Source: an uncultured Desulfospira sp. (GTDB taxonomy: Bacteria > Desulfobacterota > Desulfobacteria > Desulfobacterales > Desulfobacteraceae). From it: a DNA stretch of 64,000 bases. The notes under the pieces are model-generated. The model did not search any database and was not told the origin of the DNA. It saw nothing but the letters and a program-made list of their open reading frames with translations. The translations under genes were made by a program, and so were the position numbers. Below are positions 1 through 17,070 of the stretch, one piece after another. The DNA is taken from the NCBI GenBank assembly GCA_963663165.1, contig OY760175.1, forward strand, positions 4,416,001-4,480,000. The letters run 5' to 3'. The first letter of the stretch is position 1; each line of letters starts with the position of its first letter.

Positions 1-1
1 G

Positions 2-990: not shown

Positions 991-1010
991 TTATTCATGC
1001 GTCAGCACTG
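991..1010. mobile_element. Right terminal inverted repeat of the IS (TTATTCATGCGTCAGCACTG)
   Basis: Rhs homology starts immediately after 1010. The end resembles ISAs1-type termini (...ATGCG-N3-GCCCTG) and the remnant at 4316-4336. Confidence 0.6.
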
Positions 1011-1659
1011 CACACCTGTCAAACAGCTTGACTATGACAGCTTCGGCAATATAATAGGAGATACCCATCCAGCCTTTACTATTCCCTTTGGTTTTGCCGG
1101 CGGCCTGCACGATTCCGATACCGGCCTTGTCCGCTTTGGATACCGGGATTACATGCCGGAAATCGGCAAGTGGACCGCCAAAGACCCGATCCTGTTTGCC
1201 GGCGGGGATACTAATTTGTTTGGGTATGTCCTGAATGATCCGGTTAATTTTGTTGATCCAACTGGTGAATTTCGTTTTGGTACCAGACCCCTTGGGTCTT
1301 TTCCAGGTAAAATAGGATATAATGAGGGGGCGAGTAACCAAAGATTATTGCATGAGCATGGATTCTACGAGAACGGTCATAATGTTGGATATTTCAATCG
1401 AGGAATTGATAAAGATAGCTCGTCAGCTTGTAGCAATTATGAAATGTTTGGCCCATATTATGATGACGCTATTATGGAAATAGCTGAAAACAATTTACGT
1501 AACAGTGGAGAATGGAACAAGCAAGGTACGAGTAATGGGTACGATTTAATAAACCATAACTGCCAAGATTTTGCCGATGCATTAAGAAATGAATATGATA
1601 GATTGCAAGGCCCAATTTATGACAATCATATACCTATCTCCCTTGATCCATTCTTTTGA
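1011..1659 (+). pseudogene. Orphan Rhs core fragment + C-terminal toxin 1 (permuted papain-like/NlpC-P60 fold), interrupted upstream by the IS
   Basis: YDSFGN, FGFAGGL, RFGYRDY, GKWTAKDP and PVNFVDPTG form the Rhs-associated core. The tip has HEH...YDLINHNCQDF. Confidence 0.85.
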
Positions 1660-1666
1660 TAATATC

Positions 1667-2089
1667 ATGATTAAAATTCCTCTAACAGAATTAAAGCATT
1701 CAAAAACTTTTTGTGTTATTTCGATAATCGCAACTGTTATTTCTGTTGGGCTTATCACTAATTGGCTGTTAAAAGCAAGCTGGGATGCGATGGTTTATGA
1801 TGTTGGCAAAGTAGGCACAATAATCGTTTTGGGTATTTATCATCTAATTTATTCAGGTATAATTTTAGTAGGTGTTATGTGTTCACTTATTAGATTCTCA
1901 AATAGTATTCATCAGCTAAACATTTATATCTGCATAACATCATCGGCTTTAGTAACAATTTGTGCTAACATCCTAACCCATTTCTTCCACAATAATATCG
2001 GATGGGTTGAAATTGTCTTTGGATTGTGGATTGGTTCATGGATTGTTTGCCTACTTATTTATTTTTTTAAGGACAAGGGGCATAACTGA
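1667..2089 (+). CDS. Putative immunity protein, about 4 TM helices
   Basis: AT-rich ORF 7 bp after toxin 1 with four hydrophobic segments. Confidence 0.65.
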   Translation: MIKIPLTELKHSKTFCVISIIATVISVGLITNWLLKASWDAMVYDVGKVGTIIVLGIYHLIYSGIILVGVMCSLIRFSNSIHQLNIYICITSSALVTICANILTHFFHNNIGWVEIVFGLWIGSWIVCLLIYFFKDKGHN

Positions 2090-2104
2090 GGGATAATCTC
2101 GGGA

Positions 2105-2155
2105 TCGGGGGACCTTACATAATTCCAAATAATTAAGTAAGGTGTCCCCCGAATT
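2105..2155. repeat. REP/REPIN-like hairpin at a cassette junction
   Basis: TCGGGGGACCTTAC ... GTAAGGTGTCCCCCGAATT is a near-perfect inverted repeat with the same core as the RAYT ends. Confidence 0.75.
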
Positions 2156-2157
2156 AG

Positions 2158-3027
2158 GACCCTCTCGGCAGAAGAGCGGCCAAGAAAGTCAACGGCACCA
2201 TAGTCGAAAAATACCTGTGGTCCGGCCTTACAACCCTGCTTGCCGTGTATGACGGCAATGATGATTTAAAGCAGCGGTTCCTTTACGCAGACGACCGGGT
2301 GCCCTATGCCATGACCCAGGACGGGACCACCTGCTATCTGGCTTACGACCAGGTCGGATCTCTCCGGCTCGTAACCGACAGTTCCGGCACCCCTGTCAAA
2401 CAGCTTGACTATGACAGCTTCGGCAATATAATAGGAGATACCCATCCAGCCTTTACTATTCCCTTTGGTTTTGCCGGCGGCCTGCAGGATTCCGATACCG
2501 GCCTTGTCCGTTTTGGATACCGGGATTACATGCCCGAAATCGGCAAGTGGACCGCCAAAGACCCGATCCTGTTTGCCGGCGGGGATACTAATTTGTTTGG
2601 GTATGTCCTGAATGATCCGGTTAATTTTGTGGATCCTGAAGGGCTTTGGTCGGAAACTCATCCTCATCAAATCCAAAAAGATCCTACCGGTGGTGGTGGA
2701 GCAGGAGCAGCCAGCACTGTAACAGGTATTGGGGCTGGTTTGGCATTAGGGCAGATGCTTTCAGATATGATGTTCGAAGACTATGAAGGTAGTAGTTGCC
2801 CCGGTTACACTTCTGACAAATTTCCTCCTGGCTTCTGGCCTGGTGATAAGGGTGCTGAAGAGTGGGGGCGAAGAAACAATATAGATAAAAATGATGCTCG
2901 GCGAAGATTCCATGATAAAAAAAAGAAGGATTTGGGTAGTGAAGCAACGGATCCATATGGTGTGAATCCAGATACAGGGGATATTGTTGATCCAAATGGA
3001 GAATATGTTGATAACTTAGGCCAATAA
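2158..3027 (+). pseudogene. Orphan Rhs core fragment + C-terminal toxin 2 (probable small nuclease/RNase tip)
   Basis: Frame reads DPLGRRAAKKVNG...YDQVGSLR...PVNFVDPEGL from 2158 with no cognate start (GTG at 2245 is possible). It shares 245 bp (2392-2636) with 1015-1259 at 4 mismatches. The tip is ...FHDKKK...DPYGVNPDTGDIVDPNGEYVDNL. Confidence 0.85.
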
Positions 3028-3033
3028 ATTAAA

Positions 3034-3070
3034 TAAGGTTAACACGGCTTTTTAGTCCGTGTTAACCTTA
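3034..3070. terminator. Bidirectional terminator-like hairpin
   Basis: Perfect 14-bp stem TAAGGTTAACACGG/CCGTGTTAACCTTA between convergent genes. Confidence 0.7.
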
Positions 3071-3075
3071 AAAAA

Positions 3076-3477
3076 TTAGACCTCATTATCAAAATAAATA
3101 TCCCAATGGATTTCTAACCCAAATTTTAAAAAAGATTTCATAGTTTCTAAATCCAAAAATAATCCTTCATTCCCTGTTGAAACCCAGTAACAAAAGACGT
3201 CCATACTACAATCATCTTTACGAAGATCAGACAATAAATTTTCTTTATCTTGTAGTAATTCAATAAGTTTGGATAAATGTTTCAGGTTTTCACATGAATC
3301 AATTTTTCCCTCAGTAGACCAACTCCAAAAATTGTATTTTTGCCTTGATCTATTATGAGATTCTTGGTCTAAAGGAATCATTTCTGTTGCAGTAATATTC
3401 AATCTTCTGCCAATAATTTCAGGTGATATCTTTTTAGAAAAAATTCTTAAAGTAGCAAAAGTTTCTTTACAACTCAT
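3076..3477 (-). CDS. DUF4279-like protein, putative immunity protein
   Basis: Pattern ATLRIF..ISPE.I...L.I....W.WST.....HL..L...L...LDLE....L..FGLEI.WDIY. AT-rich and next to an Rhs tip. Confidence 0.65.
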   Translation of the reverse strand: MSCKETFATLRIFSKKISPEIIGRRLNITATEMIPLDQESHNRSRQKYNFWSWSTEGKIDSCENLKHLSKLIELLQDKENLLSDLRKDDCSMDVFCYWVSTGNEGLFLDLETMKSFLKFGLEIHWDIYFDNEV

Positions 3478-3556
3478 ATTATAACCCCTTCATTGCCAAT
3501 TTTAGTCTAAATGTCCTGTATTCTCTTAATAACTTAGGGCCTCTGACCCCATTTAT

Positions 3557-3877
3557 CCCAGCCATAATATAGGCGGCCTGGGCATTGCCGGGGATCAGGC
3601 CCGAGGCCGTTAAAATTCCCACGGCAACAGGCGGGTCCAGTCCGGTGCCTTCCTTTTTCAAATCTGCCGGTGCCAGGTTGATGGTGACCCGGTCCATGGG
3701 AAAGGTACACCCGGAGTTCTTAACCGCTGACCTGACCCGCTCCCGGCTCTCTCTGACCGCTGCCTCGGCCAGGCCCACAATGGAAAAAACCGGCAGACCA
3801 AATGCAATACCCACCTCCACCTCCACCACAATGGCGTCAATGCCGTTCACGGCGCATGAATTAACTTTTGCGATCAT
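3557..3877 (-). pseudogene. comM: 5' fragment of ComM/YifB Mg-chelatase-like ATPase
   Basis: MIAKVNS..GIDA..VEVEV...GLP.FSIVGL..AVRESRERVRSA.KNSG..FP..RVTINLAPADLKKEG. Homology stops at MAG (GEL.LDG expected next), exactly at ATAAATGGGGTCAGA. Confidence 0.9.
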
Positions 3878-4000
3878 GGGGTTCCTTTTGAAGGTCAATG
3901 GCAGAAGGGGGACAAAATTTAACCGGTTGCGGGGTTCAGGCTGTCTAAATCCCTCTTATCTAACTCCCTGACAATCTACCAAAAAAATATGGACAAACCA

Positions 4001-4022
4001 AAGAAAAAACGCATTTCTTTTG
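4001..4022 (+). repeat. 22-bp direct repeat, left copy (AAGAAAAAACGCATTTCTTTTG)
   Basis: Identical to 10642-10663. Confidence 0.95.
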
Positions 4023-4033
4023 ATATTCCGGGG

Positions 4034-4256
4034 TATGACAGCGACGGCCTGTTGACGGCATCGGGAAGTTTTACCATTTCCAGGAACCAGGAGACCGGCC
4101 TTTCTGAAACGGTTTTTAACAACGCAGTCACCATGAACCGGACCTTTAACAGCTATGGTGAGCTTGAATCCTCTGCTGTCTTGATATCCTCAAGCCCGGT
4201 TCTGGCCATTGACCTTGCCAGGAACGACAATGGCCGGATCACCGAGAAAATCGAAG
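4034..4256 (+). pseudogene. Internal Rhs/YD-repeat fragment
   Basis: YDSDGLLT...TFNSYGEL...RNDNGRITEKIE are YD-repeat-like. Bounded by ATTCCGGGG and CCGACCCC. Confidence 0.7.
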
Positions 4257-4315
4257 CTATACGCCCGACCCCCGGTCCCTGGTTAATTAACGCCATGACC
4301 ATAGGCAACTCAGAA

Positions 4316-4336
4316 TTTTTACATGCGTTAGCCCTG
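4316..4336. mobile_element. Isolated ISAs1-family terminal remnant (TTTTTACATGCGTTAGCCCTG)
   Basis: Reverse complement starts CAGGGCTAACGCATG, which fits ISAs1/H-repeat ends and resembles 991-1010. Confidence 0.5.
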
Positions 4337-4346
4337 GGGAGCATGT

Positions 4347-4393
4347 AATTCGGGGGACAAAAATATTCAATTCCGGGGACATGATACAGAATT
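4347..4393. repeat. RAYT left-end remnant plus inverted RAYT right end
   Basis: 4369-4393 AATTCCGGGGACATGATACAGAATT is the reverse complement of 6262-6286 with 2 mismatches. 4347-4367 resembles a shortened 5533-5560. Confidence 0.8.
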
Positions 4394-4402
4394 CCCATCA
4401 AC

Positions 4403-4672
4403 CTAAGGAAAATACTTATAAATCTCACCCCGATGCAGGAACCTGACAAAGCAGACGGCATCTTCTTCAATAACAAGGCCCAGGCGGTAGTCACCCATTC
4501 TGATGCGGTAGTGACTACCCTGGGCCTTTAACTTTTTAAGGTTCCGGATGCTGTGGATGTCCGGGGCCTCCTCCACTTCCCGGATGATCTGCCGGACCCG
4601 GTCGAGCAAGGGTTGGTCTGTTTTGCGTTTTTTTAAATCTCTGGCAAAGCTCTTTTTAAAATCGAGGATCAC
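4403..4672 (-). CDS. RelE/ParE family type II toxin
   Basis: 89 aa; F.KSF.RDLKK...KKLK....YRIRMGDYRL...RFLHRGEIY. Confidence 0.9.
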   Translation of the reverse strand: MILDFKKSFARDLKKRKTDQPLLDRVRQIIREVEEAPDIHSIRNLKKLKAQGSHYRIRMGDYRLGLVIEEDAVCFVRFLHRGEIYKYFP

Positions 4673-4875
4673 GCCCGGCCTTCCAGTATGTTAAATATCT
4701 CTTTTTTTGTGGCAGTGCCGGTATTCTGTCCTTCCTGGATCGCCCGGCTCAGGGCAATGTCTTCCATGGCATCCACGATCATCTCATGAAAGATGTTCTG
4801 TTTTTCTTCGAGCATCTCGACAAGTGCTTCCTTGAAGACCTGTTTGAGTCTGGCCTCATCCATTACGGTCTGCAT
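4669..4875 (-). CDS. Cognate antitoxin
   Basis: 68-aa acidic ORF overlapping the toxin start by 4 bp; EDIALSRAIQEG. Confidence 0.8.
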   Translation of the reverse strand: MQTVMDEARLKQVFKEALVEMLEEKQNIFHEMIVDAMEDIALSRAIQEGQNTGTATKKEIFNILEGRA

Positions 4876-4894
4876 GGCGTCTCCTTACAAACAA

Positions 4895-5266
4895 TCAGGC
4901 CCGGGCCAGTTGTTCAAATTTATATTTTTTGATGAATGCATCCAGCAGGCTGGTCAGTACCTGCTGGTCTTCTTCGGGAAGTTGCTCTATTTCTTCGATA
5001 TGCTTTAGAAGCTCCCGGCTCCTGATCTTGTTGATTGCCACGTTTGCTTCATCCCGCAGCAGGTAATCCAGGCTGACGTCAAACACAGAAGCAATTTTAA
5101 CGACCATGTTGGTGGGCGGGCAGACCACTCCCCGTTCGTATTTGGATATCAACTGGACATTCACGCCCAGTTTGTTGCCGAGCTGCCCCTGGGACAAGCC
5201 CCGGCCCTGGCGCAGCTTCTTTAACTTATCAGGCAATCCGGATATAATGGCTTTATTGTTATTCAT
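4895..5266 (-). CDS. XRE-family HTH regulator
   Basis: LKKLRQGRGLSQGQLG..LGV....ISKYERG...P....KIA..FDVSLDYLL. Confidence 0.9.
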   Translation of the reverse strand: MNNNKAIISGLPDKLKKLRQGRGLSQGQLGNKLGVNVQLISKYERGVVCPPTNMVVKIASVFDVSLDYLLRDEANVAINKIRSRELLKHIEEIEQLPEEDQQVLTSLLDAFIKKYKFEQLARA

Positions 5267-5531
5267 AAGTTCCTCCTTGCCTGTATATTTCTATAAATAT
5301 GGGCCTGTGTGCAAACATATTTTTCCTTGACTTTAACTTTAAAGGATACCAACTAAGCATATTAAGTTATACTTTTTGTCGTGAAAAGCAAGTTTATTTT
5401 GATATCAGGGATGTTTTTAGGAAAGAAGGCCATCAACCCGCACTCGCCAAAGTCAACCGGTTGATGGCCGAAAAAAACAAATCACAAAGGGCAAGCCCGT
5501 TTGTAACCGTTTTCTTTTTCTATCATATCTC

Positions 5532-6309
5532 GAATTCGGGGGACACGAGATAAAAATATTAATAAATTAAGTTTGATTTGCAATAAGTACCAATATGGCA
5601 AGGATAGCAAGAGCAGTAGCCCCGGGATACCCCCATCACATTACGCAGAGGGGTAACCGGAGGCAGCAGACATTCTTTTTGGATGAAGATTATCAGGCCT
5701 ATATTGATCTGATGGCGCAATGGTGCGGGCATTTTAATGTAGAAATCTGGAGTTACTGCCTGATGCCCAATCATACCCATTTAATTGCGGTTCCCGCAAC
5801 ATCAGACGGGATCGCCTCGGCCATAGGCAAAGCCCATAGAAGATATGCAAGAATGGTGAATTTCCGGGAAGGCTGGCGGGGCTATTTCTGGCAGGGACGT
5901 TTCACCTCTTTCATTTTGGACGAACCACATTTGCTGGCAGCTGCCAGATATATTGAGCAAAATCCCGTCAGGGCCGGGTTGGTTAAAAAGCCGGAAGAAT
6001 ATCGGTGGAGTTCTTGCAGGGCACACTTAAATCTCGCCAAAGATCCTCTTGTGAGGGTGGAACCTTTATCGGCATATGTAGATAAGTGGGATGAATTTAT
6101 AAATCTCCCTGTTGATCATGTCCAAAGGGATGCGATGCAAAAGCATGAGAGGACCGGGCGTCCCTTGGGAGGGGATGAATTCATTATCCAGCTCGAAACC
6201 GAGACCGGTCGGATGCTGAGAAAAAAGAAGACCGGCCCGAAAGGGCCAAGATTAAAACGATAATTTTGTATCGTGTCCCCGGAATTCGGTGTCCCCGGAA
6301 TTCGGAATT
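5532..6309 (+). mobile_element. RAYT element with inverted REP-like ends
   Basis: Left end GAATTCGGGGGACACGA. Right end TCGTGTCCCCGGAATTC, reiterated as GGTGTCCCCGGAATTC-GGAATT. Confidence 0.85.
5595..6263 (+). CDS. REP-associated tyrosine (HUH/Y1) transposase
   Basis: HHITQRGN, YCLMPNHTHL (HUH), FWQGRF, YIEQNPVRAG (catalytic Tyr) and YRWSS. Confidence 0.92.
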   Translation: MARIARAVAPGYPHHITQRGNRRQQTFFLDEDYQAYIDLMAQWCGHFNVEIWSYCLMPNHTHLIAVPATSDGIASAIGKAHRRYARMVNFREGWRGYFWQGRFTSFILDEPHLLAAARYIEQNPVRAGLVKKPEEYRWSSCRAHLNLAKDPLVRVEPLSAYVDKWDEFINLPVDHVQRDAMQKHERTGRPLGGDEFIIQLETETGRMLRKKKTGPKGPRLKR

Positions 6310-6338
6310 GTGCCACCGGTTTTACCGGTGGCTGATTA

Positions 6339-8009
6339 CTATTTACTGGCGTTTTCAACAAAAACTTCGATCAGGTTTGGATGGTTTGAGCCAATATTAT
6401 CCTCCAAAGTGGCCAGTAACTCGTTGGGATCCTCAACCTGGGTTGCTGCTACCCCCATGGACTCAGCCATTTTCTGAAAATTCATGACAGGACTGTCCAG
6501 CTCCATGCCGGGGTGTTTTTCATTCAGAGGATAGTCACCCAGTACAGCCTTGCGCACCAGCTTCACCTGACGATAGGTTGCATTATTGGTGATGATAAAG
6601 GTAACAGGAATATTGTATTTAGCTGCGGTCCAAAAAGATTGCATACTCCAGGCCGCGCTACCGTCACCGGAAACCACCACCACATTCTTATCAGGTGCGC
6701 CAAGCTTGGCCCCTAAAGCCATGGGAAGGCCTGAGCCGATACTCCCGCCGTTCCTGGCCCTGATGAAGGAATCGGGCGTATCAAGATCCAACACCTGCCT
6801 GAGCATCGCTGAAGACGACCAGCAGTCATCCACAATAATCGTGTCGGCAGGCAATGCCTTTTTCAGGTCGGACATGAGTCGGGAGATGGCAATAGGACAC
6901 TGGTCCTTTTCAGCCTGGACCTGCTCTTCAAGCATTGCCAGTTTCATTTTCTTCTCAGCCAGGATTGACAACCTGCGGGAGGCGGCCATTTTCTGGTAGC
7001 CATCATCCAACTGCCCTTCCATTTTCGCGAGAATGTCGGTGAGGCCGGCCTTTATATCGCACTGAATTCCACAATCCACTGGAAAATTCTTGCCTATTTC
7101 CCATGGATTTTCGTCAAACTGCATGATCTTGATGTCATTTGGTAGCGTCGGTTCCGGATTGACAAAGGCCTGGGCAAACATGGGACAACCGATACCGATC
7201 AACAGATCAACCCCTTCCAGTATTTTTCGGGCCGGAGGCGATGTCGGGTCCAGATCACCAAGGTACTGGCCATGGGTCACCGGAAAGTTCACGTCCGACA
7301 TCCAGCTCTGGAACACCTTCGCCCCGATCATTTCAGCAAACCGGACTGTTTCCTCTATGGCGTTGCATCGGCTGACACCACTTTCCACGAATATGACAGG
7401 GTTCTTGGCTTTCTTGAGTAGTTCGATGGCCAGGACAAGGGATTCTGCGTCCGGCCTTACCCCGGGGTATACCCGGGTATTATCCTTATAGGTGTAATCA
7501 AGTTCCCCATCCAATACATCGTAGGGTATGGAGACAAGTACAGGCCCGGCCGGATGCTGAATTGACATTTTAAAGGCCCGCTGCACCGTAACCGGAATGT
7601 CCTGGGCATGTATAATTTCAGTAGCCCATTTGCTAAAAAGCTTACCCATGCCAACAATGTCCCCGGTCAAGTGCGGGTCTCGCTGCAAAAGCCTGCTATG
7701 TTGTTGACCAACGGTAATCACAATGGGTACGTTTCCGGAACAGGCGTTATACAACATGGGAAGGGCCGCTGCCATTCCCGGCCCGGTATGCAGGTTCAAA
7801 AACCCCGGCTTTCCGGATGCTCGGGCATATCCCTCAGCCATACCTGCACAGACAATTTCATTCAAACCAAGTATATATTCAATGTCGTTCGCCCGCTCCA
7901 GGGCGTCCATGAAGACAATCTCCGTAGCGCCCGGAATTCCAAAAACATATTCAACACTCTCCTTGGAAAGGAGATCAATTAAAGCGTCTTTTCCTGTCGT
8001 CTTTGCCAT
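6339..8009 (-). CDS. ThDP-dependent 2-oxoacid decarboxylase, benzoylformate decarboxylase-like
   Basis: FGIPGATE, catalytic E in LNEI, NLH motif, and ThDP motif GDGS...WTAAKY...NN. Confidence 0.85.
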   Translation of the reverse strand: MAKTTGKDALIDLLSKESVEYVFGIPGATEIVFMDALERANDIEYILGLNEIVCAGMAEGYARASGKPGFLNLHTGPGMAAALPMLYNACSGNVPIVITVGQQHSRLLQRDPHLTGDIVGMGKLFSKWATEIIHAQDIPVTVQRAFKMSIQHPAGPVLVSIPYDVLDGELDYTYKDNTRVYPGVRPDAESLVLAIELLKKAKNPVIFVESGVSRCNAIEETVRFAEMIGAKVFQSWMSDVNFPVTHGQYLGDLDPTSPPARKILEGVDLLIGIGCPMFAQAFVNPEPTLPNDIKIMQFDENPWEIGKNFPVDCGIQCDIKAGLTDILAKMEGQLDDGYQKMAASRRLSILAEKKMKLAMLEEQVQAEKDQCPIAISRLMSDLKKALPADTIIVDDCWSSSAMLRQVLDLDTPDSFIRARNGGSIGSGLPMALGAKLGAPDKNVVVVSGDGSAAWSMQSFWTAAKYNIPVTFIITNNATYRQVKLVRKAVLGDYPLNEKHPGMELDSPVMNFQKMAESMGVAATQVEDPNELLATLEDNIGSNHPNLIEVFVENASK

Positions 8010-8246
8010 TTTTGTCCTTTTGGGTGTTGATTATTCGCTCATCTCGAAATGATTTCCGTCACCTCGTGAAACCGTTTTTTGCGTTATTAACCCAGGTTTC
8101 ACGAGGGTCAGACTTTTGAAGATTCTGACAATAACATACAATGTTCGTCGAAAGGTGAAGTGATCATCAAACAGTAAGTTTTCATTGGTTAAAAAATTTC
8201 CCAGCCGCTTCTCCCGGGGGCATAATTTGGAGAAGCGGTTCTATCA

Positions 8247-10109
8247 CTATAAATTCAGTTCCTCTATGACTTTCTGCATACCGCCGAGTTTTTCAAGGGA
8301 CTTCCGACTGGGCTTTCCGGTCGCCTCATCCCAGCCGATTGTTTCGTAAAAATTCTTGATAAACCCTTTATGGTCCACAGTAATACCCGCGATGGGGCCA
8401 TCGGCCAGGGGAGGTTCTCCAACCGATCGTGCAGGCGGCTTGAAATCAGCCGGCAGTAACCCTTCCCGTACGTTAAAGGCCTGGCGCAGATTGAAGATTC
8501 GAAGGCCCGCGGCCTGTTCCTCTTCTTCACCGAATTTCCAGCCGGTAACCGCCTCAAGAAGGGGCCTGGGCATATTGGGGAAGCCGCAGAAGTCGTTGCC
8601 GAAAAGACATAGGCCCGCTGAGTTCATCACTTCCCTGGCGGCGGTGGCCATGACGTCCGGTGGTCCACTGCCCTTTGGGCTGTTTTTATCCTCAAGGGGG
8701 GAAGGTCCCAAGCCGATACCTCCCTTGACATGGCGGCCCGGGGTCGGGTCCACGGCATAGGTCCTGGCAAGCGCCGGTCCAAAGCGGGGATCGTGCATGG
8801 GCAGCTCAATCCCTTTTACGGCAACCAGATATTCATCACCTTTCCCGAGCTTCTTGGCTGCTGCCGCAGACCCAAGTGCCAGCAGCTTGCCGAATTCAGT
8901 ATTTTGATCGGCCATTTCCCGGGTGGCCTGGACAAGTGCTTCCCCGTTTCCCCAGGTCAACTCCAGACCGCCGGTTTCCTCTTTGGACAGGAGCCCGTTT
9001 TCGTAGCATTCGATGGCCCAGGCAAGTGTACCTCCCGCCGAGATGGTGTCCAGACCGTCGAGATTACAGATATGGTTGCATTTGATCAAAGCCTCAACAT
9101 CTTTGTTCATAACCAGCGGACCAAAGCTGATGGATGTTTCGTATTCAGGCCTGCCGGTTTCGCCCACAGGCCATTTGCCCTCTTCAACTTTATAGACGGC
9201 ACCGCATCCCATGGGACAGCTGGCACAGGCAAATTTTTTGGTCCGGTACTTGGCATCCATGGCTTCACCCTCAAAGGGGGAAACATCCTCTTCTTTGAAA
9301 TCAGCGTTCACGGCACCCGCCCAGTTTTTCACCGGAGCATCGCCACACATCATGGACCCGCTGGTCATGAGGGTGGTGCCCAATGCAGAAAAGCCCCCTA
9401 CCATCTGCGCCATGGGGCCTTCTTTCATGGTCTTCATGATATCCTGATTAACCGCCTTAAGACGATCCCTATCGGCCACGGGTATGGAACCCTTTCCTCT
9501 CACAACGACGGCCTTCAGGTTCTTGGACCCCATGACCGCCCCGCATCCCCCCCGTCCGGCTGCACGATGCCCGTCATTCATAACGGCGGAAATGAGCGAT
9601 AATTTTTCACCTGCCTGGCCGATGGTCGCCAGGCGAAGCTTCTTGTCCCCGAGCTCTTCCTTAAGGGTTTTCTCGGTATCTACAACATCCTTGCCCCACA
9701 GATGACCGGCGTCCTTGATTTCCACAGCACCGTCATTAATCCAAAGGTACACAGGCTTTGAGGAACTTCCAGAGACAAAAACCGCATCAAATCCAGCTTT
9801 CTTCAATTCTGCTCCGAAATAGCCTCCGGAATTGGCATCATTCCATCCTCCGGTAACCGGGGACTTGCAGACAATTGTATATCGCCCGCCAAACAAGGCT
9901 CCTGTGGCGGTCAGAGGTCCCGTTGTAAAGCCGATGATATTTTCAGGCCCCAGGGCGTCAACGCCCGGTTTCATCATATCAAACAGCACTTTCGCACCAA
10001 TGCCGTAGCCACCGATAAATTTTTCGGCAGTTTCCTGTGGCAAGTCACGCTCCTGACACTCACCACTGGTCAAATCGACAAAGAGCATTTTCCCACAGTA
10101 CCCGTTCAT
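8247..10109 (-). CDS. aor: Tungsten aldehyde:ferredoxin oxidoreductase
   Basis: KSPVTG, AAGRGG.GAVMGSKNLKA, C-x2-C-x3-C, PEYET, GLDTIS and HDPR. Start at 10109 has an RBS (alternative start 10130). Confidence 0.92.
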   Translation of the reverse strand: MNGYCGKMLFVDLTSGECQERDLPQETAEKFIGGYGIGAKVLFDMMKPGVDALGPENIIGFTTGPLTATGALFGGRYTIVCKSPVTGGWNDANSGGYFGAELKKAGFDAVFVSGSSSKPVYLWINDGAVEIKDAGHLWGKDVVDTEKTLKEELGDKKLRLATIGQAGEKLSLISAVMNDGHRAAGRGGCGAVMGSKNLKAVVVRGKGSIPVADRDRLKAVNQDIMKTMKEGPMAQMVGGFSALGTTLMTSGSMMCGDAPVKNWAGAVNADFKEEDVSPFEGEAMDAKYRTKKFACASCPMGCGAVYKVEEGKWPVGETGRPEYETSISFGPLVMNKDVEALIKCNHICNLDGLDTISAGGTLAWAIECYENGLLSKEETGGLELTWGNGEALVQATREMADQNTEFGKLLALGSAAAAKKLGKGDEYLVAVKGIELPMHDPRFGPALARTYAVDPTPGRHVKGGIGLGPSPLEDKNSPKGSGPPDVMATAAREVMNSAGLCLFGNDFCGFPNMPRPLLEAVTGWKFGEEEEQAAGLRIFNLRQAFNVREGLLPADFKPPARSVGEPPLADGPIAGITVDHKGFIKNFYETIGWDEATGKPSRKSLEKLGGMQKVIEELNL

Positions 10110-10254
10110 GTGTTCTTCCCCCGTATTCATTGAATTACTTAAATGACAAAATCTCGCTTCAATTTTGTCGGTTCCTTCGACTCAATCATATTTTTTTTTT
10201 ACACAAAGATAAAGTCGGTTTTTTACCTGGACTTCAATACAATAGTGTATTTTA

Positions 10255-10641
10255 GAATTCCGAATTCCGAATTCCGGGGACACGAAACAAAAATATTGAT
10301 AAGTTGAGTTTGATTTGCAATAAGTACCAATATGGCAAGGATAGCAAGAGCAGTAGCCCCGGGATACCCCCATCACATTACGCAAAGGGGTAACCGCAGG
10401 CAGCAGACATTCTTTTTGGATGAAGATTATCAGGCCTATATTGATCTGATGGCGCAATGGTGCGGGCATTTTAATGTAGAAATCTGGAGTTACTGCCTGA
10501 TGCCCAATCATACCCATTTAATTGCGGTTCCCGCAACATTATCCAGCTCGAAACCGAGACCGGTCGGATGCTGAGAAAAAAGAAGACCGGCCCGAAAGGG
10601 CCAAGATTAAAACGATAATTTTGTATCGTGTCCCCGGAATT
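10255..10641 (+). mobile_element. Internally deleted non-autonomous copy of the RAYT element
   Basis: Near-identical to 5532-6286 but lacks 382 bp (5803-6184, CAT microhomology). Both ends are kept and the left end has (GAATTCC)x3. Confidence 0.92.
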
Positions 10642-10663
10642 AAGAAAAAACGCATTTCTTTTG
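10642..10663 (+). repeat. 22-bp direct repeat, right copy
   Basis: Identical to 4001-4022 and abuts the RAYT right end. Confidence 0.95.
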
Positions 10664-10877: not shown

Positions 10878-11759
10878 ATGGACTCATACTTTAAACAAAA
10901 AACCATAGCCCGAAATGTCGGCCTGTCCGGGACCGGCGTTCATTCCGGCAAAAAAAACAACATCACCATAAAGCCGGCGCCGGAAAATCACGGCATTAAA
11001 TTTCAGCGGGTGGACCTGCCCGGCACAGCCCCCATCCAGGCCCTGTTCAAGCGGGTGGTGGATACCAGCTTAGCCACCGTGATCGGCACCAACGGCGCCA
11101 TTGTCTCTACCATTGAACATCTCATGGGCAGCTTTGCCGGCCTTGGCATTGACAATGCCCTGGTGGAAATGGACGAATATGAAATGCCCATCATGGACGG
11201 CAGCGCCCGGGAGTTTACCCAGGTCTTTGAGGCGGCCGGGATTGTGGCCCAGAACCTGCCCAAACATTTCATGATCATGAAGAAAAAAGTGCGGGTAGAA
11301 GAGCAGGATAAATATGTGGAAGTGGTCCCTGCGCCCTGTTTTAAGATTACCTGTTCCATTGATTTTGACCACCCGTTGATCGGAAAACAGAAAATCACCT
11401 TTGACCGGGCTAAAAATAACTTTGAACAGGAAGTCAGCCATGCCCGGACCTTCGGGTTTGTAAAGGATATTGAACTGCTTAAACGGTTCAGCTTGGGAAA
11501 GGGCGGCAGCCTTGACAATGCCATTATCCTGGACAAAGACAAAATTCTCAATGAGGACGGCTTACGGTATCCGGATGAATTTGTCCGGCACAAGCTGCTG
11601 GACAGCCTTGGGGATTTTTCTTTGCTGGGCATGCCCATCCAGGGGCATATTATTTCCCATAAATCCGGCCATACCCTGAACCACAAGTTTATCCGGCAGC
11701 TTCTTGAAAACACCGATGCATGGGAAACCGGGCCGGCCACACCGGTACCGGTAAACTGA
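10878..11759 (+). CDS. lpxC: UDP-3-O-acyl-GlcNAc deacetylase
   Basis: G.GVHSG, STIEHLM, PIMDGSA, ARTFGF, GGSLDNA and HKLLD..GD. Confidence 0.97.
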   Translation: MDSYFKQKTIARNVGLSGTGVHSGKKNNITIKPAPENHGIKFQRVDLPGTAPIQALFKRVVDTSLATVIGTNGAIVSTIEHLMGSFAGLGIDNALVEMDEYEMPIMDGSAREFTQVFEAAGIVAQNLPKHFMIMKKKVRVEEQDKYVEVVPAPCFKITCSIDFDHPLIGKQKITFDRAKNNFEQEVSHARTFGFVKDIELLKRFSLGKGGSLDNAIILDKDKILNEDGLRYPDEFVRHKLLDSLGDFSLLGMPIQGHIISHKSGHTLNHKFIRQLLENTDAWETGPATPVPVN

Positions 11760-11761
11760 CC

Positions 11762-12322
11762 ATGAATAAATTTTTTTTTATCCTCATCCTTGTTGCCGGC
11801 CTGGTTCTGCCCCTGGCCTGTTTTGCGGACAATTCGGCCATGCTGGCCAATATCAAGCTGGCCAACACCAGAGATGACCTTCTGGCCTATTTTCAGGTAG
11901 AAAAAGCCTTTGATGAGAACATCAGCCAGGCCGTCAAAAACGGGGTGCCCACGACCTTTTCATTTCTGGTCGCCTTGTACAAAACCAGTGATTCCTGGCT
12001 GGATAAAAAAATTGCCGATGTTCAGATTAAATCCACCATAAAATTTAATTCCCTGAAAGAAGAGTATACGGTGTCAAGGCCTTGGAAAGACGAAAAACCG
12101 CTTACCACTAAGTCCTTTGACCAGGCAAAGTCCTGGATGACGGAAATTGACAACCTCAAGGTCATTCCGTTAAACAAGCTGGTCAAGGGCGGTAAATACC
12201 AGATCAGAATCAAAGCGGAACTGGATAAAGTGACCCTTCCCCTTTCCCTTCACAATGTGTTTTTCTTTGTCTCTTTCTGGGATGTTAAAACCGACTGGTA
12301 TCTTGTAAATTTTACGTATTGA
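11762..12322 (+). CDS. DUF4390 domain periplasmic protein
   Basis: Signal peptide, position upstream of ntrY-like kinase, C-terminal LP..L...W...TDW. Confidence 0.75.
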   Translation: MNKFFFILILVAGLVLPLACFADNSAMLANIKLANTRDDLLAYFQVEKAFDENISQAVKNGVPTTFSFLVALYKTSDSWLDKKIADVQIKSTIKFNSLKEEYTVSRPWKDEKPLTTKSFDQAKSWMTEIDNLKVIPLNKLVKGGKYQIRIKAELDKVTLPLSLHNVFFFVSFWDVKTDWYLVNFTY

Positions 12323-12325
12323 TCC

Positions 12326-14539
12326 ATGGACAGTGAAAGAGAACATCTGCCTGGAAAAATGTCCAGGAGGAAAAAAGAAGGAATTTTAATCCTTGCTATC
12401 CTTCTGATTGTGGGGGTGCTGACCTTTGTTGAAATAAAGATCACGCCCTTTGGAAGTGACTTTCCCTTTTCCAGTACCGTGTTGATGTTTATCCTCATCA
12501 ACATCAACCTGCTGCTGCTGCTGACCCTTCTTATCCTTGTTTTCAGGAATCTCGCTAAACTTTATACGGAAAAAAAGCAAAATATTTTCGGCTCAAAGCT
12601 GAAAACCCGGCTGGTGATTTCCTTTGTTGTCCTGGCCCTTTTGCCCACCACGGTGTTGTTTTTCTTTGCCATCCAGTTTTTGTCCACGTCCATTGCCTTC
12701 TGGTTTAATGCGCCGGTAGAGCAGACCCTGAACTCTTCGGTGGCGGTAGGGCAGAAACTCTACGATTATATTGAAGAAAAAAATGAGTTTTTTGCCAAAC
12801 GGGCCGCCTATCAGATCGACTCCCGGAAACTGCTGGATAAGAAAAATGAAAAGAGCCTGAACCGGTATACCCAGGTCATTCAACGGGCGTTTAACCGGCA
12901 TGCCGTGGAGGTTTATACGCCGGATGCCAAGCGGATCAGCCTGTCCCTGGACAACGAGGTGGAGGCCCTTCATTTCGGGTTGCTGACCACGGATGAACTG
13001 ACCCGGATTGCCCCGGACAAGGCCAGCGCCACCATCTATCAGCTCATTGACCAGGGAGAATTTTTAAGGACCGTTGCCACCATTCCATTTGGGATTGCTC
13101 CGGATAAAGCCCAGGGGTTTATTGTGATTACCACCATTGTATCCATGGACCTTTCCGAGAATCTTAAGGCCATCCTCAAGGGAATTGAGGAGTACCAGCA
13201 GTTGAAATTAACCAAGAAACCGGCCCAGATTTCATACTATATTGCCCTGTCCATTGTGGCACTGCTGGTGCTTTTCTGCTCCGTCTGGTTCGGGTTTCAG
13301 CTGGCCAAGTCCATTACCGTGCCCATCATGAAGTTTGCCGAAGGCACCAAACGGGTGGCTGAAGGGGACTTAACCTACCAGATTGATTATCAGACCGATG
13401 ATGAAATCGGAACCCTGATTGACTCCTTTAATTCCATGACCAAACAGCTGGCCGCCGGAAGAAAACAGCTGGATATGTCCGGTAAAATGCTGGAACACCA
13501 GTATGTTGAGCTGGAAAAAAGCCGGCAGTACATGGAAATTGTCTTAAGAAACGTGTCCACCGGTGTGGTCTCCATTGACAACAAGGGCATCATCACCACC
13601 ATGAACAAGGCCGCGGAATCCATGCTGGATATCCAGAGCCGGCAGGTCTTAGGCCGGAATTTTAAGCAGGTCCTCAGTGAAAAATACCTGAAAGTGGCGG
13701 ACACCATATTTGAACAGGCCGCCCACAGCCCCCACCATGTTCAGATTCCCATTTCCGCCACCATCTCGGGATCTCCCAAGCATTTTTCCCTGCATTATGC
13801 CATTTTAAAAGATGACACCGATAAGGACGTGGGCGGGGTTCTGGTGTTTGATGATGTCACGGCGCTGGAAAAGGCCCAGCGGGTGGTGGCCTGGCGGGAA
13901 GTGGCCCGGCGCATAGCCCATGAGGTAAAAAATCCGCTCACCCCCATCAAGCTGTCGGCCCAGCGGCTTAAGCGCAAATACGGCAAGCAGATTGATGATG
14001 AGATTTTCAACCGGTGTGCCGACACCATTGTGGAGCATGTGGACCTGATCCGGAACCTGGTAAACCAGTTTTCGGCCTTTGCCAAATTCCCGGACACCAA
14101 TTTTTCAAAGGACCGCATCGAAGATATCATTTTGGAGACCATTGCCCTTTATAGGGAAGGCCTTGAAAATGTGGAAATCAAGGAACACTTCAGCACGGAG
14201 ATCCCCTTGCTCAAACTGGATCGCCAGCACATGAAACAGGCCTTTATCAATTTGTTTGATAATGCGGTTTATGCGGTTAACAAAAACGGGGTGATCACCG
14301 TTGACGTGTTTTATGACCAGATTCTCAAGATTGTGAGAATTGAAATTGCCGATAATGGCAAAGGAATTTCAGACAAAGAAAAAACCCGGCTTTTTGAGCC
14401 GTATTTTTCCACAAAACAGTCCGGCATGGGGTTGGGCCTGGCCATTGTCAGTTCCATTATTTCCGATCACAACGGGGTGATCCGGGTCCAGGACAACCAG
14501 CCCAGGGGGGCCAAATTTATTATTGAACTGCCGGCGTGA
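12326..14539 (+). CDS. ntrY: NtrY-like membrane sensor histidine kinase (HAMP, PAS, HisKA, HATPase)
   Basis: AWREVARRIAHEVKNPLTPI, DNGKG, FEPYFSTK and GMGLGL. Confidence 0.85.
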   Translation: MDSEREHLPGKMSRRKKEGILILAILLIVGVLTFVEIKITPFGSDFPFSSTVLMFILININLLLLLTLLILVFRNLAKLYTEKKQNIFGSKLKTRLVISFVVLALLPTTVLFFFAIQFLSTSIAFWFNAPVEQTLNSSVAVGQKLYDYIEEKNEFFAKRAAYQIDSRKLLDKKNEKSLNRYTQVIQRAFNRHAVEVYTPDAKRISLSLDNEVEALHFGLLTTDELTRIAPDKASATIYQLIDQGEFLRTVATIPFGIAPDKAQGFIVITTIVSMDLSENLKAILKGIEEYQQLKLTKKPAQISYYIALSIVALLVLFCSVWFGFQLAKSITVPIMKFAEGTKRVAEGDLTYQIDYQTDDEIGTLIDSFNSMTKQLAAGRKQLDMSGKMLEHQYVELEKSRQYMEIVLRNVSTGVVSIDNKGIITTMNKAAESMLDIQSRQVLGRNFKQVLSEKYLKVADTIFEQAAHSPHHVQIPISATISGSPKHFSLHYAILKDDTDKDVGGVLVFDDVTALEKAQRVVAWREVARRIAHEVKNPLTPIKLSAQRLKRKYGKQIDDEIFNRCADTIVEHVDLIRNLVNQFSAFAKFPDTNFSKDRIEDIILETIALYREGLENVEIKEHFSTEIPLLKLDRQHMKQAFINLFDNAVYAVNKNGVITVDVFYDQILKIVRIEIADNGKGISDKEKTRLFEPYFSTKQSGMGLGLAIVSSIISDHNGVIRVQDNQPRGAKFIIELPA

Positions 14540-14541
14540 CG

Positions 14542-14617
14542 TTTAGGTGGATAGACTGAAGGCTGAAGGCCCTTGAGAAACAGCCCGGTTCCTTTACCCT
14601 TCAGTCTTCAGCCTAAA
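14542..14617. repeat. Inverted heptamer repeat hairpin (GRCTGAAG)
   Basis: GACTGAAGGCTGAAGG ... CCTTCAGTCTTCAGCC. Same family as 48056-48146. Confidence 0.75.
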
Positions 14618-14637
14618 AACCTTAGAAAGGAAGACCC

Positions 14638-15984: not shown

Positions 15985-16538
15985 GAATTGTGGCCGGCTC
16001 ATGCCGGGGCCGGAAACTGACCCCGATCCAGGGGTGGGATATCCGGCCCACCTCAGACCGGGTCAGGGAGGCCCTGTTTAATATCCTGGGGCCCAAGGTG
16101 CGCCACGCAAAGGTCCTGGATCTGTTTGCCGGCACCGGGGCCCTTGGCCTTGAGGCCTTGAGCCGGGGTGCCGATCATGTTGTTTTTGTGGATAACGCCA
16201 AAACATCGTGTCAAATTATCCAGGCAAACATTGACCTGTGCCGCATGGGCCCCCGGGCCAACCTTGTCCAGGCCGACCTCATTTCAGGCCCCCTGCCGGA
16301 GACACTGGTATCCGGGCGCTTTGATCTTATTTTTATGGACCCGCCCTATAAAAAAGGAATGATTGGCCACATCATGGAAAGACTGTTGTTTACGGATCTT
16401 CTGGTTCCCGGCGGCCTCATGATTATTGAACACGCAGCTGCCGAAAATTTGCCCCAAATTCCGAACGTCCTTGACATTTACCGGCAAAAAAAATACTCAA
16501 AGACCGTTATTTCTATTTTGACCCGAGCGCCGGACTGA
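15981..16538 (+). CDS. rsmD: 16S rRNA m2G966 methyltransferase
   Basis: MRIVAG, RPTSDRVREALFN, LDLFAGTGALGLEALSRG and DPPY. Confidence 0.95.
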   Translation: MRIVAGSCRGRKLTPIQGWDIRPTSDRVREALFNILGPKVRHAKVLDLFAGTGALGLEALSRGADHVVFVDNAKTSCQIIQANIDLCRMGPRANLVQADLISGPLPETLVSGRFDLIFMDPPYKKGMIGHIMERLLFTDLLVPGGLMIIEHAAAENLPQIPNVLDIYRQKKYSKTVISILTRAPD

Positions 16539-16550
16539 AGGAAACCGTAT

Positions 16551-17069: not shown

Positions 17070-17070
17070 T

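Follow-up and report, generated by a model that had tools for sequence, protein, structure and literature searches.

The motif that recurs in this part of the 64-kb window (the whole stretch of DNA that was analysed) is the terminal inverted repeat of a RAYT-type element, of its deleted second copy and of miniature hairpin derivatives. Judged from sequence and distribution, this RAYT relative appears to behave like an insertion sequence, being patchy, duplicated, often broken and located in strain-variable DNA. We consider it probable, with some reserve, that it represents a RAYT family of IS-like character, with ends at which accessory DNA is rearranged and with present neighbours that arrived independently. 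Positions below are those of the window, with negative numbers to the left of its first letter.

Searching with GAATTCSGGGGACAC and allowing at most 2 mismatches gave 9 matches in the 64-kb window, where 0.65 were expected and none of 100 shuffles reached 9. Eight of the nine are within 2105-10663, and the remaining 53 kb holds a single 2-mismatch match, at 17442, which bears out the statement of the sequence-only reading that housekeeping regions have no comparable cluster. A weight matrix for the element ends, trained on 24 exact copies all lying outside the island described below, reaches at least 17 bits at nine positions of window -13000..11000 (-3587, 2136, 4344, 4366, 5530, 6267, 6283, 10267 and 10622). 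The same reading had named nine places for the motif, and six of them (2105-2155, 4347-4393, 5532, 6271-6309, 10255-10287 and 10626-10641) are genuine because both the pattern scan and this matrix, with its training set from outside the island, score them. There is no motif copy at 3542-3556 (best matrix score -9.7, local p=0.40) or at 4263-4272 (best score over 4263-4290 of -14.4, p=0.89), and 4025-4033 is borderline (-2.5, local p=0.055), with just some 5-7 nt (ATATTCC) outside the Rhs coding sequence. Genome-wide, the exact 13-mer core occurs 33 times in 6.74 Mb, for a chance expectation of 0.4 by our own estimate; two sister genomes, G001 and G002, have 41 and 9 exact cores, compared with 1 and 2 for the reversed control pattern. 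The repeats are dispersed in extragenic DNA of this genome (G000) at low copy number, with 36 loci that include full doublets of type A and type B. Hairpin doublets fold with z from -4.7 to -14.3, and single ends fold no better than shuffles (z -1.2 to +1.0). A search of window 1-12000 against Rfam matched no family.

Copy 1 of the element (Table 1) is the sole intact copy in this genome. In its predicted protein, the HUH motif (HTH, within PNHTHLI) and the catalytic Tyr (RYIEQNP) align to those of E. coli TnpAREP, PDB 4ER8, a very distant match (E=0.004, 20 bits), and NCBIfam REP_Tyr_transpos gives 70.7 bits, under its equivalog cut-off of 80. Of the family's 151 genomes, 39 have homologues at E<=1e-40, with 1-4 matches apiece, and at least 14 of the matches listed have in-frame stops. 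Among 30 homologous loci of related genomes, GGGGACA stands 52-57 nt ahead of the start codon in 18 and TGTCCCC at -6 to +47 nt of the stop in 17; one or the other is found on at least one side of the gene in 25, often in tandem, which upholds the earlier assignment of the motif to the RAYT-type gene. This GGGGACA spacing holds across homologues of 57-91% identity, the core being kept and the outer bases varying. By these relations the repeats appear cognate to the Y1/HUH gene, which they flank in inverted orientation. The single-copy, vertical inheritance of the domesticated Groups 2 and 3 does not apply here, with two copies in this genome, a patchy distribution and many broken homologues.

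Copy 2 corresponds to copy 1 over 272 nt at 97% and over 105 nt at 100% identity, and it is orthologous to a full G001 copy at the equal position beside lpxC (G001:C1:1254593-1255346), with which it has left-end variants in common. Within the coding parts, 2 positions distinguish copy 1 from copy 2, and about 20 distinguish either of them from the G001 copy. Comparison of these copies shows that an element already stood beside lpxC in the ancestor common with the sister species, and likewise that it was duplicated 4.7 kb upstream in this lineage before the older copy lost about 380 nt. The gene-less derivatives are full hairpin doublets, solo ends and ends reiterated in tandem. The doublet at 2105-2156 (DNA fold -15.4 kcal/mol, z=-4.7) shares 85-96% identity with copies at 2028789, 6006140 and 1951747, and within the tandem solo ends 4369-4393 shows 92% complementarity to the right end at 6262-6286. 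No target-site duplication was seen at the element copies inspected, nor, by eye, any common flank or fixed target tetranucleotide beside about 14 ends.

Table 1. Features of the right part of the comM-lpxC island and its left neighbourhood (window positions)
Feature	Position	Strand	Remarks
DDE insertion sequence, right 1010 nt of 2777 nt (window -1766..1010)	1-1010	+	interrupts Rhs fragment
Resumed Rhs core end (1010-1259), then variable C-terminal tip 1	1010-1659	+	Rhs_assc_core TIGR03696, 73.6 bits
Small membrane-like ORF, putative immunity gene for tip 1	1667-2089	+	role suggested solely by position
Miniature hairpin element of type B: a pair of inverted ends, no gene between	2105-2156	.	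right arm 28.9 by weight matrix
Rhs core fragment, 5'-truncated (2156-2647), then tip 2	2156-3027	+	truncation flush with hairpin element
DUF4279 protein, possible immunity gene	3076-3477	-	PF14106, 51 bits
comM duplicate: first 342 nt and upstream region	3557-4022	-	94% identical to -12982..-12517; ChlI domain
Rhs fragment duplicated along with comM piece	4023-4262	+	4022|4023 corresponds to left edge of whole island
Two tandem solo ends, interior side rightward	4346-4393	+	weight matrix 21.8 and 27.0
Primase-encoding mobile element, left-end remnant	4396-5530	-	Pfam: ParE 4403-4672, RelB-like 4669-4875, XRE HTH 4895-5266
RAYT-type element copy 1, complete, 758 bp	5531-6288	+	29-nt inverted ends
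Y1/HUH gene of copy 1, 222 aa	5595-6263	+	Y1_Tnp (PF01797) 47.3 bits, cut-off 23
Extra right end, in tandem with copy 1 end	6289-6309	-	weight matrix 25.3; 100% complementary to 10263-10283
TPP-dependent enzyme (6339-8009) and aldehyde:ferredoxin oxidoreductase, AOR (8247-10130)	6339-10130	-	Pfam, NCBIfam
RAYT-type element copy 2	10255-10641	+	terminal units reiterated at left end; internal deletion of about 380 nt
22-nt direct repeat of comM-upstream sequence (= 4001-4022)	10642-10663	+	right island edge

An inserted island of 23 kb separates comM from lpxC, and 2105-10663 forms its right part. In 11 of the 13 relatives having a comM match, the comM and lpxC matches lie within 1 kb (exceptions G005 and G025); the intact comM, encoding a 517-aa ComM, is at -14194..-12641. 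The DDE insertion sequence, whose ORFs have DruA-like and DDE_Tnp_1_assoc Pfam domains and whose transposase C-terminal part is ORF 2-805, has nine more copies in the genome at 99.7-100% identity, eight of full length and one of 2363 nt. The Rhs part has the features of an orphan array, in that core fragments recur, end in the conserved core motif and are followed by divergent tips, with small genes downstream. The core piece at 1010-1259 is 98-99% identical to 2387-2636 and -11568..-11319, and that at 2156-2647 is 97% identical to -11799..-11308. The ORF at 1667-2089 has no Pfam or NCBIfam match. The two metabolic genes (TPP-AOR block) stand between the two direct copies of the RAYT-type element, in a stretch that an independent contig of run X1 spans from 6257 to 10336 with 0 differences, and are without a counterpart at this locus in G001 and G002. 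At the right edge, G001 keeps 85 nt of the comM-upstream repeat.

Several island junctions lie exactly at element ends, on their outer side. Eight independent ends of non-element homology blocks were recognised in 1010-10700 (1259, 2156, 2647, 3557, 4262, 4396, 5530 and 10642), and four of them (2156, 4396, 5530 and 10642) are at most 5 nt from an element end. A binomial gives this a p of about 5e-7 when every base counts as eligible and about 1e-4 when only one base in four does. The proposal that module junctions fall on the motif holds for these four and not for the other four, which have no motif; 3557, 4022|4023 and 4262|4263 are true homology breaks, though at places without a firm motif. 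Among the flush cases, the truncation of the Rhs core falls exactly at 2156, where its longer paralogues extend further upstream, and together with -3568 this makes two orphan Rhs fragments whose 5' ends abut an element end. The break in the primase element coincides exactly with the left end of copy 1. Immediately beyond the right end of copy 2, a stretch of 141 nt is absent in G000 and kept in G001, 63 nt of it being ancestral comM-upstream sequence.

Loci elsewhere were compared with the two sister genomes, and most events are without polarity because the comparisons rest on just these two. Six of seven tested G000 loci are in segments differing from the sister genome, against about 10% of variable DNA in three random 20-kb regions (60 kb, 90% collinear), which refutes an even spread of the motif. 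Breakpoint enrichment was found as well: in G001, a synteny break is flush with the element at 4 of 13 loci vs 1.09 expected (p=0.012), and in the flush cases listed the outer side of the end is always towards the conserved flank. At L047/L200, beyond one and the same flank nucleotide, G001 goes on into a miniature element and G000 into 2.47 kb of genes. L039 has a solo right end some 20 nt from the island edge and a full hairpin between two modules located elsewhere in G001. A G000-only gene block of 2.55 kb lies between two direct miniature copies (2537259-2539945), and G001 has copies there without this cargo. Simple insertion, with both flanks contiguous in the other genome, was seen at none of 20 loci (7 in G000, 13 in G001), so extra events have to be assumed at nearly every copy.

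The further idea of the sequence-only reading, that the element captures and moves cargo, is not supported by the histories of the modules, which have origins of their own and several of which occur elsewhere free of the motif. Rhs tips are joined through Rhs-core homology, with core pieces 94-99% identical, and one Rhs fragment is cut by the 2.8-kb DDE insertion sequence. What had been taken for captured toxin-antitoxin cargo belongs to a primase-bearing mobile element, of which it is the truncated left end: the 4396-5530 block recurs with the same ends at 1802657-1803789 (94%) and four times in G001 (97%), where the copies run on into a DnaG-like primase, and neither at 1.80 Mb nor in the four identical G001 copies is there any motif. 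At their G001 locations the MazEF, SEC-C and Phd-ParE modules lack the motif, and the ParD module has it about 87 nt to its left. Toxin-antitoxin neighbours were counted in 7/30 vs 4/40 cases, which is not significant (p=0.12). No relative of TPP-AOR is flanked by a RAYT-type element; among the loci of the closest AOR relatives (80 loci, <=70% identity) a RAYT homologue was found in 1, 6.4 kb off, and element ends in none except for one 1-mismatch core match in 1 locus. A stretch of identical AOR sequence in run X6 departs from the window sequence at 10141, 114 nt from the nearest element end, a weak indication from a single contig. As regards a composite transposon, direct copies bracket TPP-AOR, and neither a duplication at 5530/10642 nor a second place for the unit of TPP-AOR and its bracketing copies was found.

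On the reading preferred here, an island would first have been inserted into the comM-lpxC intergenic region and then filled with Rhs orphan tips, DDE insertion sequences, the primase-element remnant, the two metabolic genes and the element copies. The flush junctions would result from element insertion followed by end-flush deletion, local re-insertion or duplication, perhaps at the very place where the Y1 enzyme cuts. The neighbouring modules would not have been moved by the element and may have come by their own routes, such as Rhs-core recombination, IS transposition and the integration of other mobile elements. Points against this reading are the extra events needed at nearly every copy, the excess of flush junctions, the two G000-only blocks between direct copies and the REP_Tyr_transpos score under the cut-off.

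The flush excess, at the 13 G001 loci as well as among the eight block ends of the window, hints at an active role of the ends. One could go further and suppose that the Y1 enzyme cuts a true end together with a distant or solo end, moving the end-cargo-end unit or making a flush deletion or joining, so that the island would be partly element-built. The flush outer-end junctions in the window and at L047/L200 and L039, and their constant orientation in the G001 cases listed, speak for this, as do the solo and tandem ends common near RAYT genes of many genomes; the TPP-AOR and 2.55-kb blocks, being between direct copies, have the layout expected for element-mediated gain. However, no cargo block has been found twice with its ends, and the motif-free occurrence of the same modules elsewhere, the AOR relatives nearly devoid of RAYT homologues or element ends, the break at 10141 and the non-significant toxin-antitoxin association all count against it, as does the fact that we know of no one-ended events for Y1 peel-and-paste enzymes. 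We therefore think such element-driven capture unlikely, and find it equally doubtful that the enzyme, from one end or from solo ends, deletes, joins or carries gene-sized DNA and makes RAYT-type ends active recombination points. Portable homology, in which RecA recombination between dispersed element copies (56-758 bp) swaps flanks exactly at a copy, and DNA lying between direct copies is lost or integrated, would account for the direct copies around both G000-only blocks, for the cargo-free G001 copies at the second locus, and for the mosaic of 100% identity over the last 105 nt and 97% over the first 272 nt of the RAYT copies, as from conversion or crossing-over. It is yet more improbable, since L047/L200 and 10641|10642 involve one copy with the junction at its outer edge rather than inside, the miniature copies, of just 56-80 nt, have diverged, and the left flank of RAYT in G001 is unlike that of copy 1 in G000.

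Two other explanations carry very little weight. The motif might be unrelated to the Y1 gene, as a DDE-moved miniature inverted repeat, a protein-binding sequence or a terminator; the ends do resemble classical terminal inverted repeats and the genome is rich in DDE insertion sequences, but the fixed distance of GGGGACA from the gene across divergent homologues and the lack of target-site duplication at the copies inspected make this very improbable. Slightly less credible still is a strict integron-like array, with one folded recombination site per cassette and ordered insertion at one attachment point, for which only the general picture speaks, of many small accessory modules separated by a hairpin-capable repeat. 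None of the scanned ORFs in window -18000..11759, island included, has an integrase domain; single ends are unfolded, motif orientations are mixed and spacing irregular, half of the eight block ends have no motif, and Rhs tips are explained by core homology. The term "integron-like array", used in the sequence-only reading, misdescribes the anatomy, because there is neither a repeated one-orientation cassette unit nor a recombination-site hairpin per cassette.

Discussion of RAYTs mostly treats them as genes of single copy and vertical inheritance which spread short REP doublets through stable genome parts. If the ends of the present family promote flush deletions or joins, it offers a tractable case for the effects of RAYT-type enzymes on surrounding DNA; a family usually seen as domesticated or inert would then take part in building and remodelling accessory islands, Rhs and toxin-antitoxin neighbourhoods among them, by a HUH-driven, end-anchored gene shuffling distinct from integrons and ISCR elements. 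If the ends have no such role, the island would hold ordinary mobile-element debris at an integration hot spot (comM-lpxC), and would caution against reading capture into every repeated end at a module border.

Among known systems, integrons are alike in outward look alone, with many small accessory modules, and differ in that no IntI, attI, attC-like site per cassette or common orientation is present here. IS91/ISCR elements work by HUH rolling-circle with read-through capture of adjacent DNA, and have Y2 enzymes and distinct ori and ter ends; the likeness lies in the HUH enzyme and in variable DNA adjoining one fixed end, whereas no sign of one-ended replication is seen here. Rhs orphan tip/immunity arrays also have core fragments that end at the PxxxxDPxGL region and are followed by unrelated tips and small genes, but here the 5' ends of two fragments abut an element end. 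Classical IS200/IS605 elements have subterminal hairpins, not long terminal inverted repeats. The present element is like them in its Y1 domain (PF01797), its size of about 0.75 kb, no visible target duplication, multiple copies and patchy occurrence, and unlike them in its inverted-repeat ends, beside which no fixed target tetranucleotide was seen by eye. E. coli REP has a GTAG tetranucleotide and its own hairpin, neither of which is seen here. By sequence, E. coli TnpAREP (PDB 4ER8) is the best and only solved relative of the protein, the HUH and Tyr regions being alignable, and the protein here has in addition a C-terminal tail of about 80 aa. The likeness to REPIN-RAYT systems (Bertels and Rainey 2011, PMC3116915; Bertels et al. 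2017, PMC5581495) consists in a Y1/HUH gene between inverted cognate repeats, in gene-less doublets that form hairpins and in extragenic copies. The single units here are, however, non-palindromic, doublets alone fold, exact cores number about 33, and the gene is patchy (39/151 genomes), multi-copy and often broken, hence IS-like rather than single-copy and vertical. The low repeat number fits RAYT Groups 1 and 4, for which PMC5581495 gives 12-14 flanking 16-mers per replicon. Finally, PMC3390384 describes the mobile elements and strain-specific regions of the Pseudomonas fluorescens group as 'REP deserts', whereas the RAYT-type copies described here sit in variable DNA.

The ends of the RAYT-type (Y1/HUH) element are preferred places where neighbouring DNA changes, beyond chance. 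Searching its terminal inverted repeat as GAATTCSGGGGACAC with at most two mismatches gave nine matches in the 64-kb window against 0.65 expected, eight of them in 2105-10663; the window is C1:4416001-4480000 of the 6.74-Mb single-contig source genome (G000). A weight matrix trained on 24 exact motif copies, all outside the comM-lpxC island, found nine sites at 17-33 bits, regaining the known sites of the window and adding one at -3587 (negative positions lie upstream of the window start). At the nine places which the sequence-only reading had named as junctions carrying the motif, it is present at six and missing at 3542-3556 (local p = 0.40) and 4263-4272 (p = 0.89), and 4025-4033 is borderline (p = 0.055), the only sequence there that does not code for Rhs being ATATTCC.

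Element copies in the window, classes of motif copies, and G000 motif loci compared with the sister genomes
Feature	Position	Description	Basis
Complete element, copy 1	5531-6288	29-nt inverted ends around the 222-aa ORF 5595-6263	repeat search
Element, copy 2	10268-10641	direct copy; about 380 nt of the gene missing	repeat search
Additional right end	6289-6309		repeat search
Two solo ends in tandem	4346-4393		repeat search
Hairpin without gene, two inverted ends	2105-2156		repeat search
Copy class, type A		doublets of about 80 nt, both element ends joined	
Copy class, type B		near-perfect palindromes of about 56 nt, different inner sequence	
Copy classes, remaining		hybrids; solo ends; arrays of reiterated terminal units	
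L034		inside 3.66-kb G000-only segment; nearest block edge 458 nt off	
L035		within 1.9-kb variable segment	
L036		two doublets around 2.55 kb of G000-only genes; blocks adjoin doublets at 4-5 nt	
L038		copy 287 nt from synteny edge	
L039		2.9-kb G000-only island; solo right end about 20 nt from island edge	
L039 doublet		62 and 23 nt from two modules located elsewhere in G001	
L042		kept at same site in G001, within collinear block	
L047		one shared flank nucleotide, then doublet (G001) vs 2.47 kb of genes, then doublet (G000)	

Copy 2 matches copy 1 at 97% identity along 272 nt and at 100% along 105 nt. As single-stranded DNA the full doublets fold strongly (z = -4.7, -7.3 and -14.3), and single ends show no folding beyond that of shuffles (z from -1.2 to +1.0). 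About 14 ends inspected by eye, without a statistic, shared no conserved target sequence alongside them, and an Rfam search of window 1-12000 returned no family match. At 5526-5552, six left-end bases of copy 1 read GAGATA, where copy 2 and the sister genome G001 have GAAACA, and pair with TATCTC in the flank to form a 7-bp stem around the motif; this stem was discarded, since shuffles fold as well (z = -0.86).

The 222-aa ORF matches Y1_Tnp at 47 bits and NCBIfam REP_Tyr_transpos at 70.7 bits, under the cut-off of 80, and its sole solved relative by sequence is TnpAREP of E. coli (PDB 4ER8, E = 0.004), with which the HUH motif and the Tyr region align. It is the only intact gene copy in G000, which besides holds a deleted copy, seven loci with distant Y1 paralogues and, at 2.96 Mb, a fragment about 80% identical. 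A 324-aa Y1_Tnp paralogue with 30% identity to the RAYT is encoded at G000:4888279-4889253; 0.8 kb away, at 4890062, an exact 13-mer core stands within an AMMECR1/Memo ORF. Homologues at E ≤ 1e-40 occur in 39 of 151 genomes of the taxonomic family, with one to four matches per genome, and at least 14 of the homologue matches listed carry in-frame stops. Among the 30 homologue loci fetched, GGGGACA stands 52-57 nt 5' of the start codon in 18 and TGTCCCC at -6 to +47 relative to the stop in 17; one or the other is present on at least one side in 25, commonly two to four in tandem, from which we infer that gene and ends travel together, and the bases beyond the repeat core vary between lineages. 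The family resembles an insertion sequence more than it does a domesticated RAYT present in single copy.

For the 13-mer core AATTCSGGGGACA, G000 has 33 exact matches and 57 with one mismatch, against 0.4 exact matches by chance in our own estimate; exact cores number 41 in G001 against one for the reversed control, and nine against two in the second sister genome, G002. Type B palindromes resemble the ends of a RAYT clade of 60% identity. Other repeat families of about 100-190 nt, some of them tandem, are far commoner than the RAYT-type motif; G001 has dozens of copies of these and G000 has several (window 10811-10877; L034:531-655 and 824-931; L042:276-428; L047:504-706).

Rather than being evenly spread, the motif favours strain-variable DNA at the loci compared: six of the seven G000 loci lie in variable DNA, against 90% collinearity with G001 in three 20-kb regions taken at random (binomial p = 6e-6 for a background of 10% and 4e-4 for one of 20%), the synteny comparisons resting on the two sister genomes. 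With G001 as reference, BLAST of 13 further loci against G000 gave four flush cases against 1.09 expected (p = 0.012), flush meaning that a block ends no more than 15 nt from the exact core, measured at its outer edge; a fifth is flush once degenerate terminal units count, and in the flush cases listed the conserved flank faces the outer side of the end. At these loci the flush cases are in line with the enrichment at synteny breakpoints for which the sequence-only reading had proposed a test. Its claim that module junctions fall on RAYT ends stands as a preference above chance. Of the eight non-element homology-block ends in the window, four have an element end no more than 5 nt away (2156, 4396, 5530 and 10642) and four have none that close (1259, 2647, 3557 and 4262). 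At none of 20 loci does the other genome show the two flanks joined, as a clean insertion would require.

In the housekeeping part of the window, synteny with G001 breaks between 42421 and 42422 (G000:4458421). Here G001 has a tandem pair of element ends abutting the break, followed by DNA lying 40 kb further on in G000, and G000 has no motif; the next 18.6 kb of window searched after 42422 lies about 93 kb away in G001. Conserved flanks with differing content were also observed at G000:6001058-6014100 and G001:C1:2650000-2655200, one locus which in G000 holds 10 kb with a type B element, Phd-ParE and a CvfB-like gene, and in G001 holds 2.15 kb with a motif copy and a ParD module 96% identical to a module at 2.03 Mb in G000.

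Both window copies lie in an island of 23.2 kb (-12516 to 10641) between comM and lpxC. In 11 of the 13 relatives with a comM match (G000 and G001 not counted) the comM fragment and lpxC matches are at most 1 kb apart, the exceptions being the relatives G005 and G025; in G000, intact comM is at -14194 to -12641, with a HipA-family kinase gene on its far side (-15546 to -14287; L026:2454-3713), and lpxC is at 10878. The left edge of the island falls between CTTTTG and ATATTCC, followed by an Rhs fragment, and at the right edge the right end of copy 2 is followed by a 22-nt repeat of comM-upstream sequence, of which G001 retains 85 nt. Direct repeats of comM-upstream sequence were located at window 4001-4022, 10642-10663 and -12538 to -12517, and at G001:C1:1255425-1255509. 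Bracketing of the island by direct repeats suggests that it arose by site-specific integration; the ORFs scanned in the G000 island included no integrase. The content of the island comprises Rhs core fragments with differing tips and small downstream genes, a nest of DDE insertion sequences, and a 2777-nt IS that has nine more copies in the genome. The stretch 3557-4262 duplicates, at 94% identity, the 5' end of comM and the first Rhs fragment. Within that fragment, beside comM, a tandem duplication of 144-nt period (-12509 to -12237; 129 nt at 97%) is missing from the duplicate at 4030-4262.

G001 carries a full element at the same site beside lpxC. The three-way alignment gives left-end variants common to copy 2 and G001, and in the coding parts copy 1 and copy 2 differ at two positions and each differs from G001 at about 20. 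On this alignment copy 2 is evidently the old resident and copy 1 a duplicate arisen in this lineage, and copy 2 lost its missing part later, between short repeats. Just outside the right end of copy 2, 141 nt present in G001 are missing in G000, 63 of them being ancestral comM-upstream sequence; this difference, the one loss for which polarity is settled, is most probably an end-flush deletion or a local re-insertion. The layout of copy, cargo and copy is not a misassembly, since an independent contig of the public run X1, a run which may be source data of the assembly itself, spans 6257-10336 without a difference from the window. The public runs are contigs, in which rare circles or empty sites are not visible. 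A joint 4000 to 10642 in runs X3 and X5, considered as an empty site of the strain, comes from a G001-like organism with 79 differences in 1.4 kb, and the joints 4336 to 10822, 3451 to 9181 and 1112 to 2611, with sides of only 21-31 nt, were set aside as repeats.

That the element captured the cargo, as had been proposed, finds no backing in the modules, which have histories of their own, none being found twice with ends. Rhs 1010-1259 is 98-99% identical to 2387-2636 and -11568 to -11319, and Rhs 2156-2647 is 97% identical to -11799 to -11308; each tip starts where its core stops (1259 and 2647), and these two joints carry no motif. The toxin-antitoxin block 4396-5530 (ParE, RelB-like, XRE HTH) recurs with identical two end nucleotides in three settings, namely G000:1802657-1803789 (94% identity, no motif alongside), four G001 copies at 100% mutual identity, and one in the relative G012. 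A DnaG-like primase gene follows on from the block both in G001 and at 1.80 Mb, which makes the window block the left end of another, primase-encoding mobile element, severed precisely where copy 1 begins with its left end. The primase element (G001 L209, L213, L215 and L217; G000:1802657-1805289) has at its left end ParE-RelB-XRE, divergent from a 103-aa ORF and the primase, and its four G001 copies show 100% identity across at least 3.9 kb.

For the genes 6339-10130, which encode a TPP-dependent enzyme and an aldehyde:ferredoxin oxidoreductase (AOR), neither G001 nor G002 has a counterpart at this locus. Among the 80 loci kept for AOR relatives, identity does not exceed 70% even for the best; a TPP homologue (27%) is present at one, a RAYT homologue at one, at a distance of 6.4 kb, and the motif is absent bar one 1-mismatch core match. 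The relatives' loci gave no lead to a source of these genes, the closest relatives having neither the TPP gene nor the element. A single contig of run X6 agrees with the 5' part of AOR without a difference for 632 nt and departs from the window at 10141, 11 nt upstream of the AOR start codon, which hints that the genes occur in another context in a related population.

By our crude ORF calls for neighbour genes and genes outside the window, a TA-family gene is the immediate neighbour at 7 of 30 motif loci against 4 of 40 random intergenic gaps (Fisher p = 0.12), and the proposed toxin-antitoxin link was dropped. For Rhs the counts are 5 of 30 against 0 of 40 (p = 0.012), becoming 3 of 26 by independent regions (p = 0.057), which makes the association suggestive only.

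With moderate confidence, we read the region as a hot-spot island occupied by an IS-like element of RAYT type together with its miniature derivatives, where end-flush deletions, duplication and re-insertion would shape the surroundings of the element. A live rival, though an unlikely one, is that the enzyme drives capture or joining from single ends; that the outer side of the end faces the conserved flank in the flush cases listed may be set on its side, and the independent histories of the cargo on the other. Recombination between element copies, for which copy 1 and the direct copy 2 would be candidate partners, we hold to be more doubtful still. Searches of the literature on RAYT/REPIN with toxin-antitoxin and on REP with genomic islands, breakpoints and RAYT gave no paper connecting RAYT ends with cassette capture, and a search on IS200/IS605 passenger genes gave one unrelated review. 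The integron-like array once envisaged differs from the anatomy of 2105-10663 in every defining part of an integron, none being present. Among RAYTs, according to Bertels et al. (2017, PMC5581495), the flanking 16-mers of Groups 1 and 4 number only 12-14, members of Group 1 are found on plasmids too, and it is this Group 1 or Group 4 part of the known RAYT range that the window element fits.
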